From Escherchia phage Stokescottia: 64,000 nucleotides of DNA. Below, in pieces: positions 32,116 through 63,826 of this stretch; within the stretch, counting starts at the first letter, position 1, and the number at the start of each line of letters is the position of its first letter. Below the pieces are notes generated by a model. The model was not told the origin of the DNA. It made no database searches and worked only from the letters and a program-made list of their open reading frames with translations. The translations under genes and the position numbers were made by a program. The stretch lies in the sequence record OR896820.1. One strand, written 5' to 3'.

Positions 32116-32609
32116 AATTTTATTCTAAGTCTAGGAATTTCAGGCTCCTCTTGATGGACTTGGTAAATAACAGGGCTATTATTTACCAGAATATAGCTTA
32201 TATAAGCTGGAACATAGGATAATACAAATGGATATGGAACTTTAGCTACATAGCATTGGTATTTTCCGTTATAAATTCTAGCTGAATGCAAAACTTTAGA
32301 GGTGACAACATCATAGAACGTAGTTTTCTTCCAGTTAATAAGATTTCCATCAGAATCTATAAATTGGCTACGTTTTGACCCAACTAATTGAGACAACATT
32401 GATATTCTACCTCTAATAGGATAGAGCTTATATGGTAATTCTTTCCGTTTCTCAAATAGGATAAGCCTACGTTGAGAAAACGTGCCAGGCAACTTCCTGT
32501 TATCTAGCACATATTTATTATATCTTGTTGTAATTACGGAATAATCACCTTCTTGCTCAATTGATACAAACGCCCGTAAAGCATATACGGGCAATTTGAA
32601 ATCAAGCAC
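32112..32609 (-). CDS. Hypothetical protein
   Basis: 165-aa ORF between the polymerase and helicase genes. Confidence 0.3.
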   Translation of the reverse strand: MLDFKLPVYALRAFVSIEQEGDYSVITTRYNKYVLDNRKLPGTFSQRRLILFEKRKELPYKLYPIRGRISMLSQLVGSKRSQFIDSDGNLINWKKTTFYDVVTSKVLHSARIYNGKYQCYVAKVPYPFVLSYVPAYISYILVNNSPVIYQVHQEEPEIPRLRIKL

Positions 32610-35169
32610 CGAGAATCCTTCTCACGTTATCCAAATCTTTACATACAGCAATAAACTTATCATCCTTGTATTTGCTATGATCTGGATGCTCTTTATCCAT
32701 TGCAGCTAGTTTCTTATACTCGAACTCTGCATCAAGTAATACACCCTTGACATAACGAGTATACTCATCATCATCAATACAAGCGATTGATGGGTGCTGT
32801 TTCTTCATCTTACCACAAGAGTAGTCACGAGAACCTCCAGCTTCAGAATCTGAATCAATACCAATCGGACAGCCAGGAATACTGATACCACGGTCTTTCT
32901 GAATATTACGAATCAGGATTTCATTGTATTGGTCGATCAAATCCTCACGAACAATAGCAACTACGGAGTCGTGAACCAGCATAACAATCTTCATCTCTTG
33001 TTCTAGGCCAAGAGAAATGATCTCATTATCCGCATCTACAGCCCCTAAAAGGAGACTATCAGAAGAAGCAGACTGAATGATTGCGTTAAATCCAGAACGG
33101 ATTTCTTCACCCTGAACACCACGGTCTTCGGAGTGAATATTATGCAGACGACGTTTACGACCAAAGTGACTATAGATAAATCCATGATTCTTGATCTGAT
33201 CGTGGCACTTATCAATCCAACGCTTAAGCTGCGGGAACTGACCGAAGTAAGTTTCAATGTACTCTTTAGCATCCGCAACAGTACATTCAACAAACGGTTC
33301 GCCTGTCTTAGCAGCCTGTTCCAGAAGAGCTTCGTTAACAGAATGAGCTACTTTAGCTGGGCCAGAACCATACAAAATACCGAAGGTGATTGCCTTAGCA
33401 GCCTGACGCAGAGCTGGGAATAACTTTTTAACATCACGAGGTTCGCATTGTAGCTTAAATACCATATGTGCGATGTTAGAGTGGAAGTCAGGGTATTTAT
33501 CAGGTTCATTTCTCATGTTGATAAATACCTGTTGCATATTTCTATCACCAGATAGAACAGCAGCATAATAAACTTCCGCAGTTGTTAAGTCCCATGCGAT
33601 TACACGATACCCGGGAGGAGCTACTACACAACCCTTGATAATAGATTCATCACGAGGTAGCTGTTGCAGGTTCAGTTTACCAGAAGAACTCAAACGACCA
33701 GAAGTAGTCATGTGTTCATGGAAGCCAGTACGAATGCAACCATCAGCATCAATGCTCAGAAGAATCTTCTCAATGTAAGTAGAGATCAGCTTGGTCAGCT
33801 TACGAATCTCTAGTAGGGTCTTAGCAATTGGATGCTGCGTAGCCAATTCGTTCAAGGCTTCTGCATCTGTAGAGTCTGCTCCAGTATCCGTCAATTTACC
33901 TGTTGGAGTTAAGCCAACATAATCAAATAGAAGAACACGTAGCTGCTTAACAGAGTTAGGATTAAATGCTTCATTCTGATCTTTCTCTAGCTGAACTACT
34001 TCTGGATAAGTATACAGCTTCTCACGAGCTTTATTCAGATTATGAGTTAACTGATACTGAGCTTCTTTCAAGCGATCAATAGAAATTGGTACACCACGAT
34101 CCTCAACACGCTGGAGAAATACACAACCAGGCATTAGAACATCATAATACAGACTGCAAAGTTTTTCATTCTTCTCAATTTTTGGTAAGAAGAAATTGTG
34201 CAAACGTAGGGTGGCATCGGTATCTTTTGCAGCGTAAGGCCACATAATATCAAACGGAATTAAATCATAGGTGAAATCTTCTTTCTTGATTTTATGTGCT
34301 TTGCAGTAATCATCCTTGAACTTATCTAGTTCAAAGTCATAGTCACCCATATCGGTATACTTCATTGCTAGAGATTTCAAGCCATGAGTACCACGACGTT
34401 CATCTAGAACATAATGCTGCAACATAGTATCATGGAGCCTACGTTCTTTATGTGCTTTATCAAAAGTAAGTCCCAGATGGTACTTATAAAAGTGCATATC
34501 AAACTTCAAGTTGTGAAAAACAATAGTGTGGTTTTCACTATCCAGGATTTTCTGGAGATAATATACTGCAACCTCTGTGAGACAATCAGAATCGATATAT
34601 ACACCCTGATACTCTTGGTGAGACATAGAAACACCAAGCAGATAACCATCTCGACAGTATAGTGCTGAGGTTTCGGAGTCAAATGCGACAGGTCCGATAA
34701 CCATATTATACACCATCTTGATATATTCTTCCGCCTCATCAGGGTCAGTAATAGGACGGTAATCACCAGCTTTTGCAATCTTCTCACGACCATTGATAAT
34801 ATCGTGGATATTCTCTACTGTTGCATCAAAAACTGGTTTCATTTCAGGTTTAAAGTGTAACTGGGCTGGGCTGATACTCGCAATCCAGTTAGCATATCCA
34901 TTATACTCTACACGTTTACCAGTATAGTCACCAATGCCTTTCTTACCTGCGAAGTACAGGAAAGGTTCAGCACCTACTAGTATAACAAAATCATAATCAT
35001 TCGGATCAAATGGGTTTTCTGGTGTTCCAATAGTAATATGCTTTTTAAGCAAACGACCAGATAACTTCTCGTTACACATATGGAATACATCAACTTCCTC
35101 GCCGTATAGCTGGAAATGTTTATCATAACGAGTGTTATTTAGAGCTTTATCAACTACTGCGATCTTCAA
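32602..35169 (-). CDS. DNA polymerase, family A, with 3'-5' exonuclease domain (apparent TTG start)
   Basis: 855 aa; exonuclease-like 'FDSETS' and polymerase motifs 'RRLHDTMLQHY...', 'KAITFGILYG', 'LVHDS'; GAGGAG RBS. Confidence 0.85.
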   Translation of the reverse strand: MKIAVVDKALNNTRYDKHFQLYGEEVDVFHMCNEKLSGRLLKKHITIGTPENPFDPNDYDFVILVGAEPFLYFAGKKGIGDYTGKRVEYNGYANWIASISPAQLHFKPEMKPVFDATVENIHDIINGREKIAKAGDYRPITDPDEAEEYIKMVYNMVIGPVAFDSETSALYCRDGYLLGVSMSHQEYQGVYIDSDCLTEVAVYYLQKILDSENHTIVFHNLKFDMHFYKYHLGLTFDKAHKERRLHDTMLQHYVLDERRGTHGLKSLAMKYTDMGDYDFELDKFKDDYCKAHKIKKEDFTYDLIPFDIMWPYAAKDTDATLRLHNFFLPKIEKNEKLCSLYYDVLMPGCVFLQRVEDRGVPISIDRLKEAQYQLTHNLNKAREKLYTYPEVVQLEKDQNEAFNPNSVKQLRVLLFDYVGLTPTGKLTDTGADSTDAEALNELATQHPIAKTLLEIRKLTKLISTYIEKILLSIDADGCIRTGFHEHMTTSGRLSSSGKLNLQQLPRDESIIKGCVVAPPGYRVIAWDLTTAEVYYAAVLSGDRNMQQVFINMRNEPDKYPDFHSNIAHMVFKLQCEPRDVKKLFPALRQAAKAITFGILYGSGPAKVAHSVNEALLEQAAKTGEPFVECTVADAKEYIETYFGQFPQLKRWIDKCHDQIKNHGFIYSHFGRKRRLHNIHSEDRGVQGEEIRSGFNAIIQSASSDSLLLGAVDADNEIISLGLEQEMKIVMLVHDSVVAIVREDLIDQYNEILIRNIQKDRGISIPGCPIGIDSDSEAGGSRDYSCGKMKKQHPSIACIDDDEYTRYVKGVLLDAEFEYKKLAAMDKEHPDHSKYKDDKFIAVCKDLDNVRRILGA

Positions 35170-56858: not shown

Positions 56859-57388
56859 TTACAGCAATGTATGCAGTTGGGCCGAATGGGGAGTTCGGCC
56901 TCCGCGGTAAACTTCCATGGGGTTCCTTCAAAGAAGAACTAGATGCTTTCTATTCTCAATTGGACGTGTTGAATCCAGATAACATCATCATTGGTGCTGG
57001 TACTTATTTAGCTCTCCCATACGCCGTTAGGGAACGTATGATTGGAGCTTCCGACCTATTTATTCGTGCTGATCGTCCACTGCCAGACGATATTACACAT
57101 GATATTTACACCCCAATTTCTAAGATCGGGGATACATTGCCTACGTTCTTAAAAGATCAACAGACAGTGGTTTTAGGTGGTGCAACATTACTGTACGAAA
57201 TGTATATTCATGGTCATATTGAAAGTGCTTTCGTATCCACAATCTTTAGTAATCAAAAACTAGAGGCAGATGTACATCTGGATAATACGATTCTAGATTA
57301 CAACTATGAATCTACTCGTTTAGTTTACGCAACCGGCGCAAACAGTGATAACAGCCTGCGATTTGTACAGGAATTGGTTACTTATTAA
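56855..57388 (+). CDS. frd: Dihydrofolate reductase
   Basis: 177 aa; N-terminal '[22 protein letters not shown]'. Confidence 0.8.
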
Positions 57389-58242
57389 TGGATCAGTATA
57401 TCGAAGTTGGAAAACGTATTCTATCAGAGGGTCAGTGGGTAACGAATCCTAGAACAGGGGTTCGTTGCCTCACTATTATTGATGCAGACTTTACTTTTAA
57501 CGTAGGTGCAGGTGAATTTCCACTTATTACTACTCGTAAGGCGTTTGCAAAACAAGCAATAATGGAAATGATTGGGTATCTACGTGGGTATGATTCAGCA
57601 GCACAATTCCGCGCTATTGGTGTTAACACATGGAATGCTAATGCAAATGAAAACTTAGCTTGGCTAGACAATCCATACCGTAAAGGTGAGGATGATATGG
57701 GACGAGTCTATGGTGTTCAAGGACGTCAGTGGACTAATTCCGATGGTCTTATGTTTGACCAACTAGCCAAGATTTATCATAATCTGAAAAATGGCATTGA
57801 TGATCGTGGGGAAATTCTAACATTCTGGAATCCGGGAGAGTTCTCAAAGGGTTGCTTACGTCCATGTATGCACACTCATCAGTTCTCTATTTTGGGAGAT
57901 ACATTATATCTGAACTCTTTCCAGAGATCTAATGACTTCCTGTTAGGCCAAGTATTTAACATGGTTCAGTGCTATACGCTTCTAGCATTAATGGCACAGA
58001 TTACAGGCCTTAAACCAGGAATTGCACGCCAGAAGATTATCAATCTTCATATCTATGAGGATCAGTATAACGTTCTTATGGAGCATAAGCAATTCGATCG
58101 TGAACCTTTTGCACCTCCTACTCTAGAAATCAATCCAAATATCCGAACTCTGGAGGATGTATTGACCTGGGTAAATAAGGATGATTTTACTGTTCGTGGT
58201 TACAAACACCATCCTGCTATTGCATACCCCTTTACGGTATAA
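57388..58242 (+). CDS. thyA: Thymidylate synthase
   Basis: 284 aa; catalytic Cys in '[10 protein letters not shown]'. Confidence 0.8.
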
Positions 58243-58692: not shown

Positions 58693-58974
58693 ATGATTTC
58701 AGCCAAAGAAGCTCAAGAACTCGCAGGATTAACAGAAGTACCCGCATTTCTAAAGTTTATAGAAGAAAAGATTGTAGAAGCTGCTAAGTCTGGAAATACA
58801 GAAGTAATTATTCGAGATAATCCTTACGCTAGGTGGCTATATAATCCTAGAGAAATGCCAGGAGCAGCTAAATCAGTACTAAAAACCTTATCGGATAAGG
58901 GGTATCATCTCTCACAATACTACCGAGAAGCCGCCTTTGTAGACATGGGTCTTAAAATTAGTTGGGAGGTATAA
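58693..58974 (+). CDS. Hypothetical protein
   Basis: 93-aa ORF with GGAGGT RBS and own promoter. Confidence 0.3.
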   Translation: MISAKEAQELAGLTEVPAFLKFIEEKIVEAAKSGNTEVIIRDNPYARWLYNPREMPGAAKSVLKTLSDKGYHLSQYYREAAFVDMGLKISWEV

Positions 58975-59450
58975 TGTCGGTTTTCCACATTTACACAGAT
59001 GGTGCTTGTAAGTCTAACCCAGGTCCAGGTGCTTGGGGTTTTATTGTCTATGATGATAACGACGATCGTTTAGGTTCTAAATCTGGTTATAATCCTAAAA
59101 CTACAAATAATGAGATGGAACTCACAGCTATTGTAGAAGCTCTACGTTGGTCCGTTAAAAAAGATAATAGACCAATTGCTATCTATACTGACTCTGCTTA
59201 TTGCAAAAACGGCATGGAAAGTTGGATGTTTTCTTGGCAAAGGAAAGGCTGGAAGAAAGCAGATGGTGAAGTTCCTCTTAATCTAGAACTTTGGCAGGAA
59301 GCATTTAAATTAACACAGCAGTATATCAACTTTCATAATACTAATCCTACCTTTATTAAGGTTAAAGGACATTCTGGTATTAGTGGTAATGAAGCTGTAG
59401 ATGCATTGTGTAATACTGTTATTACTGAGCAAGAACTTGCCGAGATGTGA
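58974..59450 (+). CDS. rnhA: Ribonuclease H (start at MSVFHIYTDG; the track uses 58962)
   Basis: RNase HI motifs 'YTDGACKSNPGPGAWG', 'EMELTA', 'IYTDSAY'. Confidence 0.8.
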   Translation: MSVFHIYTDGACKSNPGPGAWGFIVYDDNDDRLGSKSGYNPKTTNNEMELTAIVEALRWSVKKDNRPIAIYTDSAYCKNGMESWMFSWQRKGWKKADGEVPLNLELWQEAFKLTQQYINFHNTNPTFIKVKGHSGISGNEAVDALCNTVITEQELAEM

Positions 59451-59526: not shown

Positions 59527-59811
59527 ATGCGGATTTATAACTCAAATTCATTAGGATTTAAACCATTGAGAAAACGTGCACAATCACCTCGTCAAATAAG
59601 AAAGGCTAATATTGGTGAGCCAGAGACACGACTTCCACCTCCTCCAGAACAACGTTTAGTTTATCTGGACGAAGAATTAGCGGAATGCGAAAGAAAAGCT
59701 CAAGAAGAGATTGAGCGTAAGAAAATGTGTACTGCTCCAGCCTACTCCAAAGGGGCTTATCAGTATATCTATACAGCCGAGGAGGCTAAAGATGCGGGGC
59801 GTAAAAAATGA
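59527..59811 (+). CDS. Hypothetical protein, translationally coupled to the NADAR gene
   Basis: 94-aa ORF whose stop overlaps the NADAR ATG (ATGA). Confidence 0.3.
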   Translation: MRIYNSNSLGFKPLRKRAQSPRQIRKANIGEPETRLPPPPEQRLVYLDEELAECERKAQEEIERKKMCTAPAYSKGAYQYIYTAEEAKDAGRKK

Positions 59812-60257
59812 AGATTACTGAATTTAAAGGTACTTATAGTTTCTTATCAAACTTTTATTTATCACCAATTACTTTCGAATATCTAAATGAAATATGGCAT
59901 GCTGATACTGTAGAACATGCTTTTCAGGCTATGAAATCCGACCAAAAAGATGATGTAGCTCATGTACTGCGCTCCCTAAATGCAGGAGTTGCCAAACGTA
60001 GAGGACGTAAATTAACTCTACGCTCTGACTGGGATAAGGTAAAAGATGATGTAATGCTAGAGCTTTTACGGTTAAAGTTTGCAATCCCTGATTTGAGAGA
60101 CAAACTGTTAGCAACAAAAAATGCAACTTTGATCGAAGGAAATACCTGGGGAGATACATATTGGGGTGTTTGCCGAGGCATTGGGGATAATACTCTAGGT
60201 GTTCTTTTGATGCAGGTAAGGTCTGAAATTAAAAGAAGCTTACAGTTAATAAATTAA
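59808..60257 (+). CDS. NADAR-domain (YbiA-like) protein
   Basis: 149 aa; 'FLSNFY', 'EHAFQAMK', 'KF..P.LR..LLAT....L.E....DTYWG'. Confidence 0.65.
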   Translation: MKITEFKGTYSFLSNFYLSPITFEYLNEIWHADTVEHAFQAMKSDQKDDVAHVLRSLNAGVAKRRGRKLTLRSDWDKVKDDVMLELLRLKFAIPDLRDKLLATKNATLIEGNTWGDTYWGVCRGIGDNTLGVLLMQVRSEIKRSLQLIN

Positions 60258-60265
60258 AAATTCAT

Positions 60266-60294
60266 TTGCTAAACGCTTCAAATTCTCGTATAAT
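60266..60294 (+). promoter_or_regulatory. Promoter (TTGCTA-N17-TATAAT)
   Basis: Hexamers with 17-nt spacing upstream of gene 60333-60848. Confidence 0.6.
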
Positions 60295-60332: not shown

Positions 60333-60848
60333 ATGGCTAAGCAGAAAAACGCAAAAACTCAAGCAGCTCCGGCAGTTAAAACTTTCCCGCAGACCGAGGC
60401 TAATCGCAAAGATCGCCTGGAACGTCACCTGCGTAAGCATCCTACCGATACCCAGGCTGCGCAAGCACTGAATAATCCGGCTCCGATTCGTCAGAAGCCT
60501 AAAGCTAAAAATGCCACCCGTAAATCCTACAAAATGGTTATGTATGTAGAAAATTACGGCCACAAATCTGTCCCAGTTTCCCTGAGCTTTAACGCTGGGG
60601 CTGAATTGTTCTCTCGTAATGGTATGTCTATGAAAGACTATGAGAAGGCAGTTAACCAGAAGCGTAAACCAACAGCAGATGTATTGCGTGATACTCGTGG
60701 ACAGTTTGGTTCTGTTAAGCCAAATATCTTTGGCGTAGAGTATAGTAAAGATAATGTTCGTGCTCTGTGTTACGGTGTAGGCATTAAGTTCACGGGTGAT
60801 TCTGCTCGTAAATCTGCTAAACCAGCTCGTAAGCGTAAAGCGAAGTAA
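60333..60848 (+). CDS. Hypothetical basic protein, probably abundant
   Basis: 171 aa, Lys/Arg-rich termini, high-expression codon bias, own promoter. Confidence 0.35.
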   Translation: MAKQKNAKTQAAPAVKTFPQTEANRKDRLERHLRKHPTDTQAAQALNNPAPIRQKPKAKNATRKSYKMVMYVENYGHKSVPVSLSFNAGAELFSRNGMSMKDYEKAVNQKRKPTADVLRDTRGQFGSVKPNIFGVEYSKDNVRALCYGVGIKFTGDSARKSAKPARKRKAK

Positions 60849-60912
60849 TAGATAAATAGGGGCGAAAGCCCCTACAATCGATTAATTCTCTAACTAATCA
60901 AGGATATTTTTT

Positions 60913-61128
60913 ATGTTCTCTAAGAAACCACGTTCTGTTACTGAAATTGTTGCTTCCTTTACCACTATCACTGATGAACTTCAAGCTCGTATTGAGGCTG
61001 ATCAAAAAATCGCAGCTGATATTCAGAAACAGCAGGAAGAACTCGCTTTAAAGTTGGCTGAAACTAACAAGAGTGAAAAATCTGCCCAAACTATTATGGA
61101 AAATATCCTTAAACTGCTGGGCAAGTGA
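60913..61128 (+). CDS. Hypothetical coiled-coil protein
   Basis: 71-aa ORF. Confidence 0.3.
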   Translation: MFSKKPRSVTEIVASFTTITDELQARIEADQKIAADIQKQQEELALKLAETNKSEKSAQTIMENILKLLGK

Positions 61129-61169
61129 TTTAAATCAGGGGGCAAAAGCCCCTCTTATTTGGAGAAACT

Positions 61170-61391
61170 ATGCGTAATTTTGTAGCAAAGAATGATTTTA
61201 ACCGTGCTAGCACCCATAAGTCAGCTAGGGATTATACACGACTTTCTAGTCATGAGGTAATGGATTTAGCAGTGGATGAGTTAGACTTAGATGACCCCTA
61301 TATGGAAGAGAACTGGGATGTCAGTGAGGATATGCTTCCTGGTTTTAAAGACCCCAAGAAGTGGGAGTCTATTAAAGAGACAGCTCTTTAA
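61170..61391 (+). CDS. Hypothetical acidic protein
   Basis: 73-aa ORF. Confidence 0.3.
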   Translation: MRNFVAKNDFNRASTHKSARDYTRLSSHEVMDLAVDELDLDDPYMEENWDVSEDMLPGFKDPKKWESIKETAL

Positions 61392-61419
61392 TAGTTTTCT
61401 ACACAATAAAGGATAAGTT

Positions 61420-62121
61420 ATGAAAGTAAAACCATTTGGTATGCTAGATATTGAATCTCTAGGAACTCCAGGAGATTGTGGTACTACTCATATCGCAATG
61501 CCTTCTTTCGCTTTTGTGGCTATGCATGGAATTGATAAAGACCCTGATCTAGTATTTGTTACTTTGGATGTGCAAGATCAACTTAATTCTGGTGCCAAAG
61601 TCACAGCATCTACTCTAGCATTCTGGATGGATCAAGCTAAAAATAGTCCGTCTGCTATCCACATTATGGAAGCTATGAAGGAACGTAATCCAAAACTGAT
61701 TGCCTTCCAAAATGGTAAACATCATTGCACTAATAAATTAGGCTCAAACTATGCTGCCTTCTCTATGGCTCAAAATATTATGGAGTTGGCTCTAGGCGAA
61801 AATGCTTTGTATTATGGCAATGGCCCAGAGTTTGATATGACTATCTACTCTGCAAATACGTTCCATGCTGGAACCAATGAAGAGGTAGTTCCGTGGAAAT
61901 TCTGGAATTTGGGCAATGTTCGATCTCTTCGTAATCTCTGGATGCAAGCTGGATACAGTTATAAAGCTCTAGAGACCGAAGGTATTAGCTGGGCAATAGC
62001 TAAAATGGAGAAGATGGACACTATTCGTTATGGGATCTATCCAGTTAAGCACGACCCAGCATTCGATGCCTTAGTTGAGAGCTATTGTGTTGCAGCTATG
62101 ATCGAAAAAATGAAAATTTGA
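61420..62121 (+). CDS. Putative DEDDh-type 3'-5' exonuclease
   Basis: 233 aa; candidate Exo I 'LDIESLG', Exo II 'PEFDM', Exo III 'HDPAFDAL'. Confidence 0.45.
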   Translation: MKVKPFGMLDIESLGTPGDCGTTHIAMPSFAFVAMHGIDKDPDLVFVTLDVQDQLNSGAKVTASTLAFWMDQAKNSPSAIHIMEAMKERNPKLIAFQNGKHHCTNKLGSNYAAFSMAQNIMELALGENALYYGNGPEFDMTIYSANTFHAGTNEEVVPWKFWNLGNVRSLRNLWMQAGYSYKALETEGISWAIAKMEKMDTIRYGIYPVKHDPAFDALVESYCVAAMIEKMKI

Positions 62122-62122
62122 T

Positions 62123-62151
62123 TTGCTTCCGGCTCCAAAATTCTGTATAAT
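62123..62151 (+). promoter_or_regulatory. Promoter (TTGCTT-N17-TATAAT)
   Basis: Hexamers with 17-nt spacing upstream of gene 62192-62374. Confidence 0.6.
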
Positions 62152-62191: not shown

Positions 62192-62374
62192 ATGCCAGTA
62201 TCTAAAAATGTTCGTAAAAATGGTAAGAAAGCTACTCGTGATCTGGGTATCCGTCGTATGGCTGAACGTCAATCAGGTATCCAGAAAATCTTTAATCTAC
62301 TAAATCGTGCTAATCCTAAAATTGATAACAGTAACGATACTGTTCTGCGCACTCTGCTGGCAATTGGTCTGTAA
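62192..62374 (+). CDS. Hypothetical small basic protein
   Basis: 60-aa ORF behind a TTGCTT-N17-TATAAT promoter. Confidence 0.25.
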   Translation: MPVSKNVRKNGKKATRDLGIRRMAERQSGIQKIFNLLNRANPKIDNSNDTVLRTLLAIGL

Positions 62375-62427: not shown

Positions 62428-63066
62428 ATGACTACTCGTATTTCTAAAACTCGCGCTCTGGCAACTATCAAATCTCTGGAAGCTAAAATCCGTAAAGCTA
62501 CTGAACAGCAGCTTCTGATTGCTGTTGGTGAAGGTAAGGATAAAAACCAGGTTGTAGTTGGCGCTGCAATCGAAGTAGCTGATCTGTCTACCCGTATTAA
62601 GACTGATTTCCAATCTCTGCTGGATATGATGTCTCAGCGTGATCGTATCAAATCTGCTCTGATTAAGAGCAATGCAGAAACAATCGTTGAGATCGGTTCT
62701 CGTAAAATGACTGTTGCGGAAGCAATTGAAGCTAAGCGCTCTATGGAGCTTAAAGCTCAACTGCTGGCTAACATGCGTAAGCAGTTCCATGCCGCTACGG
62801 TTAAATTTAATACGCAGAAAGCACAATTTGATGCTAAATATGAGCGTTTACAGGATAGTATGGCTACTCGCGATAAGAAAACTTCCGAAGATGAAGTTAA
62901 AATGCAGCTCAACCTGCTGGAACTCAAGAATACTCCATTCTTGATTGACCCGCTGGAACTGGAAAAGCTGATTAAGCAGCATGACGAGGAATATCAGGAC
63001 TTTGCAACAAATGTTGACTTTGTTCTGTCCGAGTCTAACGCCTCTACCTTCATTGAAGTAGAGTAA
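62428..63066 (+). CDS. Hypothetical coiled-coil protein, probably abundant
   Basis: 212 aa with high-expression codon bias. Confidence 0.35.
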   Translation: MTTRISKTRALATIKSLEAKIRKATEQQLLIAVGEGKDKNQVVVGAAIEVADLSTRIKTDFQSLLDMMSQRDRIKSALIKSNAETIVEIGSRKMTVAEAIEAKRSMELKAQLLANMRKQFHAATVKFNTQKAQFDAKYERLQDSMATRDKKTSEDEVKMQLNLLELKNTPFLIDPLELEKLIKQHDEEYQDFATNVDFVLSESNASTFIEVE

Positions 63067-63508: not shown

Positions 63509-63826
63509 ATGACTTTTCATATTTTGATTGATGATGTGCGTAATCTTCACGGAATGGACATTATCATTCGAACCCCAGAAGCCGCTGTAGAGTTTCTGAA
63601 TAAAACTGATACCACAGGCCATTTCGTTTATATGGATAATGACTTGGCTGTAGATGGTATGGAGGGTTATCAAATTCTTCGTTTACTCTTAGAATTTGGG
63701 CAGAGACCAAAGAAAGTGGTACTAGTAACCTCGAACCCAGTAGCTAAGCAAAATATGCGTAATGATTTGCTTGACTTAGGGTATAAAGAAAATCCCAATC
63801 GTGTTGAATATGATTGGCAGGAGTAA
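63509..63826 (+). CDS. Standalone CheY-like receiver-domain protein
   Basis: 105 aa; 'ILIDD', 'VYMDNDLAVDGMEGYQIL', 'VVLVTS' resemble the receiver fold. Confidence 0.4.
   Translation: MTFHILIDDVRNLHGMDIIIRTPEAAVEFLNKTDTTGHFVYMDNDLAVDGMEGYQILRLLLEFGQRPKKVVLVTSNPVAKQNMRNDLLDLGYKENPNRVEYDWQE

Follow-up and report, generated by a model that had tools for sequence, protein, structure and literature searches.

A T5-type early gene encodes a putative free-standing DEDDh 3'-5' exonuclease of the DexA/Rv2179c-like family within a conserved gene triad

The gene at 61420..62121 (+ strand) of the 64-kb window, which is the whole stretch of DNA that was analysed, very probably encodes a metal-dependent DEDDh 3'-5' exonuclease of the DexA/Rv2179c-like family that would be made early, co-transcribed with the other members of a conserved triad of genes, and used in a DNA transaction. 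The identification as an exonuclease is already recorded in Pfam (PF16473), in PHROG 255 and in the RefSeq annotation of T5, and by itself adds little new biology. New here are only the conserved triad, with the fusion of the nuclease to a DUF7230-like peptide, and a probable explanation for the wrong name that many of its orthologs carry. No papers characterising the T5 ortholog (T5.087) or its orthologs by biochemistry or genetics were found in the literature searched, and the literature on PF16473/DUF5051 or on DEDDh enzymes in anti-defence contained nothing specific.

When the ORF list was read against the raw sequence, the coding sequence was found to specify 233 aa from an ATG start, with a Shine-Dalgarno-like AAAGGA (61408..61413, + strand) located 6 nt 5' of the ATG. 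Its ortholog T5.087 (YP_006915.1) shares 222 of the 233 amino acids (95 %), and nucleotide identity between the two genes is 92 %. The orthology with T5.087 and the substitution rates (dS 0.40, dN 0.022, dN/dS 0.056) identify 61420..62121 as a genuine T5 early-region gene under strong constraint. An identical protein (100 %) is present in Salmonella phage MET_P1_100_107. In total, 583 phage records matched the exonuclease, 573 of them over at least 80 % of the query, and nearly all are T5-like phages from Salmonella, Escherichia and Klebsiella. The genomes of 30 sampled T5-type orthologs measure 103-138 kb. A 51-aa minus-strand ORF within the gene (61792-61947) was dismissed, as there was no support for it.

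The first-pass annotation, made from the letters alone, had proposed a DEDDh enzyme from candidate Exo I, II and III motifs in the right order, and reading the codons of the 233-aa frame bears this out. The Exo I motif (LDIESLG, 61444..61464, +) supplies D10 (gat, 61447-49) and E12 (gaa, 61453-55), the Exo II motif (GNGPEFDMTIY, 61816..61848, +) supplies D139 (gat, 61834-36), and the Exo III motif (KHDPAFDALVE, 62047..62079, +) supplies H211 (cac, 62050-52) and D216 (gat, 62065-67), that is, H211-x4-D216. The H-x4-D spacing in Exo III is the defining mark of the 'h' subtype, as opposed to Y-x3-D. A regular-expression search of the protein found a single D.E, a single N...FD and an H....D at residue 211, in addition to a second H....D at residue 36 that is not conserved. 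Taken alone, the motifs are short enough that they could occur by chance. The whole-protein evidence (PF16473, PHROG 255, the 583 records and the low dN/dS) far exceeds chance.

Two alignments were used to follow these residues, A1 with 29 homologs (identity down to 36 %) and A2 with 45 homologs (identity down to 21 %). D10, E12, D139, H211 and D216 are invariant in both. Within Exo II, A1 shows no variation at G133, N134, G135, F138 and D139, and the full invariant set in A2 consists of D10, E12, W69, F138, D139, R168, H211 and D216. In profile alignments, the DEDD acidic residues, on whose presence the first-pass annotation had let its proposal depend, and H211 also coincide with catalytic positions in T4 DexA, whose structure is solved: D10/E12 with D7/E9, D139 with the aspartate of ..GMSFD119, and H211/D216 with H186/D191. 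The structural paper on DexA names D7/E9, D119 and H186/D191 as catalytic residues, with the glutamate printed there as E12 (PMC12153337).

The Pfam search returned one match, PF16473 ("3'-5' exoribonuclease Rv2179c-like domain"; E=3.4e-8), at 33.8 bits against a gathering threshold of 27 bits; T5.087 scored 33.4 bits with the same model. The match spans residues 8-180 (model positions 4-148 of 177) and stops short of Exo III because of an insert. A match to PHROG 255 (phrog_255, 'exonuclease') was obtained at E=1e-52. There was no match to PF00929 (RNase_T) in the Pfam search, even at E<=10, and zero matches in NCBIfam and PADLOC. When the PDB was searched with the single protein sequence, only spurious matches to designed armadillo repeats were returned, and a search with the narrow profile A1 brought up nothing but PCNA noise. 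The A2 profile matched the T4 DexA structures 8KEL/8KEN ("exodeoxyribonuclease") at E=9e-24. In direct comparison by hhalign, A2 aligned with DexA in the register of the catalytic residues at a probability of 99.1 % (E=1.3e-18), and A1 aligned weakly (probability 60 %, E=8.6e-5). T4 DexA itself scores as a member of PF16473 (E=2.4e-22). The profile search, one of the checks that had been suggested for this gene, has yielded PF16473, PHROG 255 and DexA 8KEL/8KEN.

When 1.84 billion cluster representatives were searched exhaustively, the close subfamily proved small, with 13 clusters at E<=1e-10, and passed gradually into ordinary Rv2179c-like proteins (170-200 aa). Two long repeat proteins that scored E<=2e-5 against the exonuclease (P0040 and P0067, a eukaryote-type receptor phosphatase with tandem repeats and a BspA-like repeat protein) were rejected as spurious matches through many short repeated stretches. 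On these profile comparisons, the putative exonuclease is a divergent, T5-phage-specific branch of the DexA/Rv2179c-like family (PF16473).

An AlphaFold2 model of the single chain, built on the 29-sequence alignment, reached a pLDDT of 89.4 and a pTM of 0.90, and its predicted fold is the RNase H-like alpha/beta fold of DEDDh enzymes. In the model, D10-I-E12 of Exo I lies within the first beta strand (residues 6-12), D139 of Exo II stands after a strand at the start of helix 138-148, and H211-DPAF-D216 of Exo III falls just before and at the start of the last helix (213-231). The five catalytic side chains would be expected to cluster around two metal sites. When the model was compared with the PDB using Foldseek, the top match was E. 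coli RNase T (E=3.6e-5, probability 1.0, TM 0.5-0.56, up to 0.56/0.62), followed by TREX2, 3'hExo and TREX1, all of which are DEDDh enzymes. T4 DexA (8KEL) was absent from the best 50 PDB matches. Against viral models, T5-like orthologs were found, followed by phage DexA and Rv2179c-like exonucleases. Structure prediction, which had also been suggested as a check, hence agrees with the DEDDh assignment that was drawn from the motifs, the above-threshold PF16473 match and the DexA register.

If the protein works as the rest of the DEDDh class does, its four acidic residues (D10, E12, D139 and D216) would coordinate a pair of divalent metal ions, with H211 as the general base, and nucleotides would be removed singly from a free 3'-OH end. 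This two-metal-ion chemistry with a histidine base is expected from what is known of the DEDDh class and from the invariant residues. The first-pass annotation had added that RNA or small nucleotide signals might be processed as well, and on this idea the computed results are neutral. Cyclic oligonucleotides are unlikely substrates because they have no free 3' end.

A competing description of the gene product is found in the databases, where 'metallopeptidase' or 'putative metallopeptidase' stands on many GenBank and UniRef entries. Among 30 evenly spaced orthologous records, 17 are annotated as metallopeptidase, seven as exonuclease and four as hypothetical, and two have no annotation. The T5 RefSeq note on T5.087 reads "identified by match to InterPro family IPR000834", the entry for peptidase M14. 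In the window, the stretch HAGTNEEVVPW (residues 149-159, 61864-61896) fits the PROSITE zinc-carboxypeptidase signature 2 and is the probable source of the name. However, no more than 8 of 29 homologs show the signature-2-like pattern, which is missing in the other 21, the first zinc signature is absent, and 210 of 200,000 shuffles of the exonuclease sequence produced a signature-2-like pattern by chance. In addition, no peptidase family was found in Pfam at E<=10, NCBIfam was empty, the predicted fold is RNase H-like DEDDh, and both RefSeq T5 and PHROGs now say exonuclease. We concluded that a zinc metallopeptidase is extremely improbable and that the label appears to be an inherited chance pattern match. 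In UniRef the name has also been carried over to the neighbouring small protein. The practical value of this result is curatorial, as spurious metallopeptidase names on about half of the sampled orthologs and on the UniRef neighbour need correcting.

T4 DexA is the known enzyme most useful for comparison. Like the T5-type protein, it is a free-standing phage DEDDh 3'-5' exonuclease of about 230 aa that belongs to PF16473 and is separate from the polymerase. The two proteins have in common a T-x3-W(W) motif (STLAFW in the query, containing W69) and a P-x-KFWN...R motif (PWKFWNLGNVRS in the query, containing R168), and query PWKFWN aligns with PCKFWN of DexA in hhalign. The T5-type protein is distinguished by an added beta-hairpin (residues 92-106) and, ahead of Exo III, by a long insert of helices (residues 181-204). 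Identity between them is only about 16 % and the BLASTP match is non-significant (E=0.32), so that profiles are needed for detection. Because of this BLASTP value and the weak reach of the A1 profile to DexA, function is unsafe to transfer from DexA.

DexA degrades DNA in the 3'-5' direction, with a preference for ssDNA, and helps to process breaks in intron homing (PMC12153337). It has been reported to form a homodimer with a composite substrate site. T5 DNA is not known to contain 5hmC, and T5 is not known to recycle host DNA or host nucleotides, so the two documented roles of DexA are not directly transferable. In the window and in T5, the dNTP synthesis genes nrdA, nrdB and thy are near the exonuclease gene. 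As a full de novo dNTP set adjoins the gene and T5, by textbook accounts, does not reuse host nucleotides, a role in host-DNA scavenging as in DexA is unlikely.

By analogy with T4 DexA, a substrate of ssDNA, 3' tails and oligonucleotides is somewhat favoured, since DexA is the only characterised phage member of the family and T5 has many HNH homing endonucleases (hegA, C, H, I and J in the T5 RefSeq record). The enzyme would then probably trim 3' ends in recombination-dependent replication or repair and act at breaks made by the phage homing endonucleases.

The same fold and chemistry could instead serve an RNA substrate, with an enzyme like RNase T or Rv2179c that trims the 3' trailers of tRNA and stable RNA or degrades RNA primers or host transcripts. 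Rv2179c of Mycobacterium tuberculosis, the founding member of PF16473, is in the same Pfam family and is of DEDDh type, but it is bacterial and acts on RNA. It is regarded as a divergent RNase T ortholog, i.e. an RNase T-like exoribonuclease (PMC8628891). This view of Rv2179c as the equivalent of RNase T, together with RNase T as the top fold match in the PDB, makes RNA a serious alternative. The Pfam family name also refers to a 3'-5' exoribonuclease domain, T5 has about 25 tRNA genes and several stable RNAs, and an RNase H gene (58962-59450 in the ORF list) is a near neighbour of the exonuclease gene. E. coli RNase T (PDB 3NH0, 3NH1 and 2IS3) is the closest solved structure and has the same DEDDh chemistry. 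It differs from the exonuclease in sequence (12-14 % identity, and the exonuclease does not match the RNase_T family), and as the TM is only ~0.5 the enzyme may work like RNase T without belonging to its family. Moreover, RNase T degrades ssDNA too and its top-match structures are ssDNA complexes, so that likeness to its fold cannot tell the two substrates apart. Against an RNA substrate, T4 DexA, the sole characterised phage member, is a DNA exonuclease (PMC12153337), and in the 64-kb window there are zero tRNA genes and no conserved linkage to tRNA genes. We consider RNA rather unlikely as the substrate and prefer DNA, although the computed results fit both alike.

The window belongs to a T5-like phage and is collinear with T5 in reverse orientation. 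The T5-type DNA polymerase gene (32605-35169, - strand), which is 99 % identical to that of T5 and includes its own proofreading domain, lies about 26 kb from the exonuclease gene and on the other strand, and is followed in T5 order by ligase, the origin-binding protein and NrdA. The exonuclease is thus free-standing, as had been claimed, and its place among the early genes is confirmed by collinearity with the T5 early region, where orthologs of T5.089, T5.086, T5.085 and T5.084 flank it.

Early transcription of the exonuclease gene would probably start from a sigma-70 promoter. In T5 RefSeq the order is promoter P-H207, then T5.089, T5.088 and T5.087, and in the window a sigma-70-like site (TTGCTA-17-TATAAT, 60266-60294, + strand, 10/12 in the consensus scan) is found at the position of P-H207, upstream of the triad. 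The scan alone proves nothing, as it found 10 sites against 11.6 expected in shuffles. A further promoter-like site (TTGCTT-17-TATAAT, 62123-62151, + strand) lies directly after the exonuclease stop codon; its -35 element matches at only 3/6, which is why it is absent from the scan output. T5 annotates a promoter that overlaps the 3' end of T5.087, which matches the position of this site, and the site probably drives the next small gene (62192-62374).

The triad begins with the gene for a very basic DUF7022 protein of 171 aa (60333-60848, + strand; PF22887, E=1e-75), the ortholog of T5.089. The second gene (61170-61391, + strand) encodes an acidic protein of 73 aa, the T5.088/T5p086 ortholog (phrog_4586), which is 78 % identical to T5.088 and has a weak DUF7230 match. 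The exonuclease gene is the third. This order (DUF7022, DUF7230, exonuclease) was observed in the window, in T5 and in two distant T5-like metagenomic contigs (L003 and L004) whose exonucleases are 36-39 % identical. The DUF7022 gene (7088-7498 in L003 and 6267-6752 in L004) immediately precedes the DUF7230-exonuclease pair in T5 and L004; in the window and in L003, one or two small genes intervene. In the case of the 73-aa acidic protein, its gene adjoins the exonuclease gene in all loci examined, including T5 and L004. The three genes would be co-transcribed, and the DUF7230-like protein would probably serve the nuclease as a flexible adaptor.

When more distant clusters were inspected, the DUF7230-like protein was found joined in frame to the exonuclease, at its N-terminus, in five of them (P0015, P0020, P0021, P0022 and P0029). 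The P0021 cluster represents 136 sequences, and the P0029 fusion is intact on a 57-kb contig. The PHROG 255 profile also contains the partner segment and matches the 73-aa protein at 3.7e-4. Homologs of the 73-aa protein are stand-alone only (44-92 aa) and occur in T5-like contexts. The in-frame fusion argues that the two proteins act together, and the DUF7230-like protein is a likely partner of the exonuclease. The most conserved stretch of the partner (residues 1-25, motif MRNFVAKNDFNRA-THKS) is predicted to be disordered. A model of the P0021 fusion, which was meant to show how the partner docks, was uninformative on the interface because the partner is mostly disordered: pLDDT is >90 in the nuclease domain and <50 in residues 1-25, with one helix at residues 27-43. 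Given the low pLDDT of residues 1-25, the partner resembles a linear motif or a flexible tether more than a docked domain. DNA polymerase III epsilon-theta (DnaQ-HolE) is likewise a DEDDh exonuclease with a partner of about 75 aa and is mentioned as an analogy only; a point of difference is that most of the T5-type partner is predicted to be disordered. Neither T4 dexA.1 nor dexA.2 is a relative of the T5.088-like partner. The DUF7022 protein, for which no relative was found in the PDB or PADLOC, is possibly a nucleic-acid-binding third component.

T5 is now a workhorse for the study of defence systems that involve ssDNA 3' ends and exonucleases (DRT4, DRT9 and retron-Septu), and the substrate of the exonuclease and its conserved partner could gain relevance for these studies. 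Systems that restrict T5 include DRT4, DRT6, DRT9 and retrons, for which ssDNA 3' ends and ExoI are important (PMC12783706, PMC13434031). The exonuclease could accordingly be imagined as a counter-defence nuclease that attacks 3'-ended immunity products (retron msDNA, the ssDNA or poly-dA of DRT4/DRT9, and linear di- or oligonucleotides), with the DUF7230 peptide as a targeting adaptor. The ssDNA used by several T5-active defences has a 3' end that host ExoI normally removes (DRT4, PMC12783706; DRT9, PMC13434031), and the conserved, disordered N-terminal motif of the partner resembles a binding peptide. Two neighbours, a NADAR-domain gene (59808-60257) and a cREC-domain gene (63509-63826), encode proposed conflict domains for NAD/ADP-ribose and cyclic phosphates (PMC7824862). 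However, the exonuclease gene belongs to the syntenic core of T5-like phages and evolves there under strong purifying selection, unlike typical variable anti-defence cargo, PADLOC gave no match, and cyclic oligonucleotides would offer no 3' end to such an enzyme. The known anti-retron protein of the T5 family, Rad, is a different protein (10.1101/2023.03.15.532788). A counter-defence role is accordingly judged improbable, and the role in DNA transactions of the phage is preferred.

It may also be speculated that the triad is a dedicated module, in which the invariant N-terminal motif of the partner anchors the exonuclease at one particular target in the host or the phage, possibly for erasing 3'-ended ssDNA immunity products (retron msDNA and DRT4/DRT9 ssDNA) or for processing 3' ends at the characteristic nicks of the T5 genome. 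We give this reading little credence; if true, it would mean a targeted function that is not known for DexA-type enzymes.

Two further candidate connections to defence were rejected. The exonuclease is not Rad, which is a 189-aa TOPRIM-type protein of the tRNA region (10.1101/2023.03.15.532788). Triggering of Hailong by an enzyme of this kind was not accepted either, as the trigger reported for Hailong is a Dhillonvirus exonuclease that works 5'-3'.

Some other genes near the exonuclease gene depart from T5 or carry doubtful names. The thymidylate synthase gene (57388-58242, + strand) is only 31 % identical to T5 thy while its flanking genes are 90-99 % identical to T5, and it looks like a gene replacement inside conserved synteny. 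The NADAR-domain gene (+ strand; PF08719, E=6e-22) has the RNase H gene on one side and the DUF7022 gene on the other. It is apparently an addition with respect to T5, since T5 RefSeq has only one small gene (T5.090) in the interval. In relatives, the NADAR gene is annotated as 'swarming motility protein' or 'DUF1768'. The DUF7022 and DUF7230 genes are separated (region 60849-61160) by a 71-aa ORF (60913-61128, + strand; phrog_2380) flanked by GC-rich hairpins at 60856-60875 and 61138-61153. As T5 has a 42-bp gap and no gene there, this ORF looks like a small inserted cassette. The cREC-domain gene (+ strand; PF20274, E=3.8e-15) is the T5.084 ortholog, with 96 % identity. The cREC domain ('cyclic-phosphate processing receiver') was proposed by the Aravind group to process cADPR or 2',3'-cyclic phosphate ends (PMC7824862). 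Lastly, the T5.085 ortholog (62428-63066, + strand, 212 aa; phrog_1491) is annotated as 'tail fiber protein'. As an early-region and probably coiled-coil protein, it may bear in this label another inherited misannotation.
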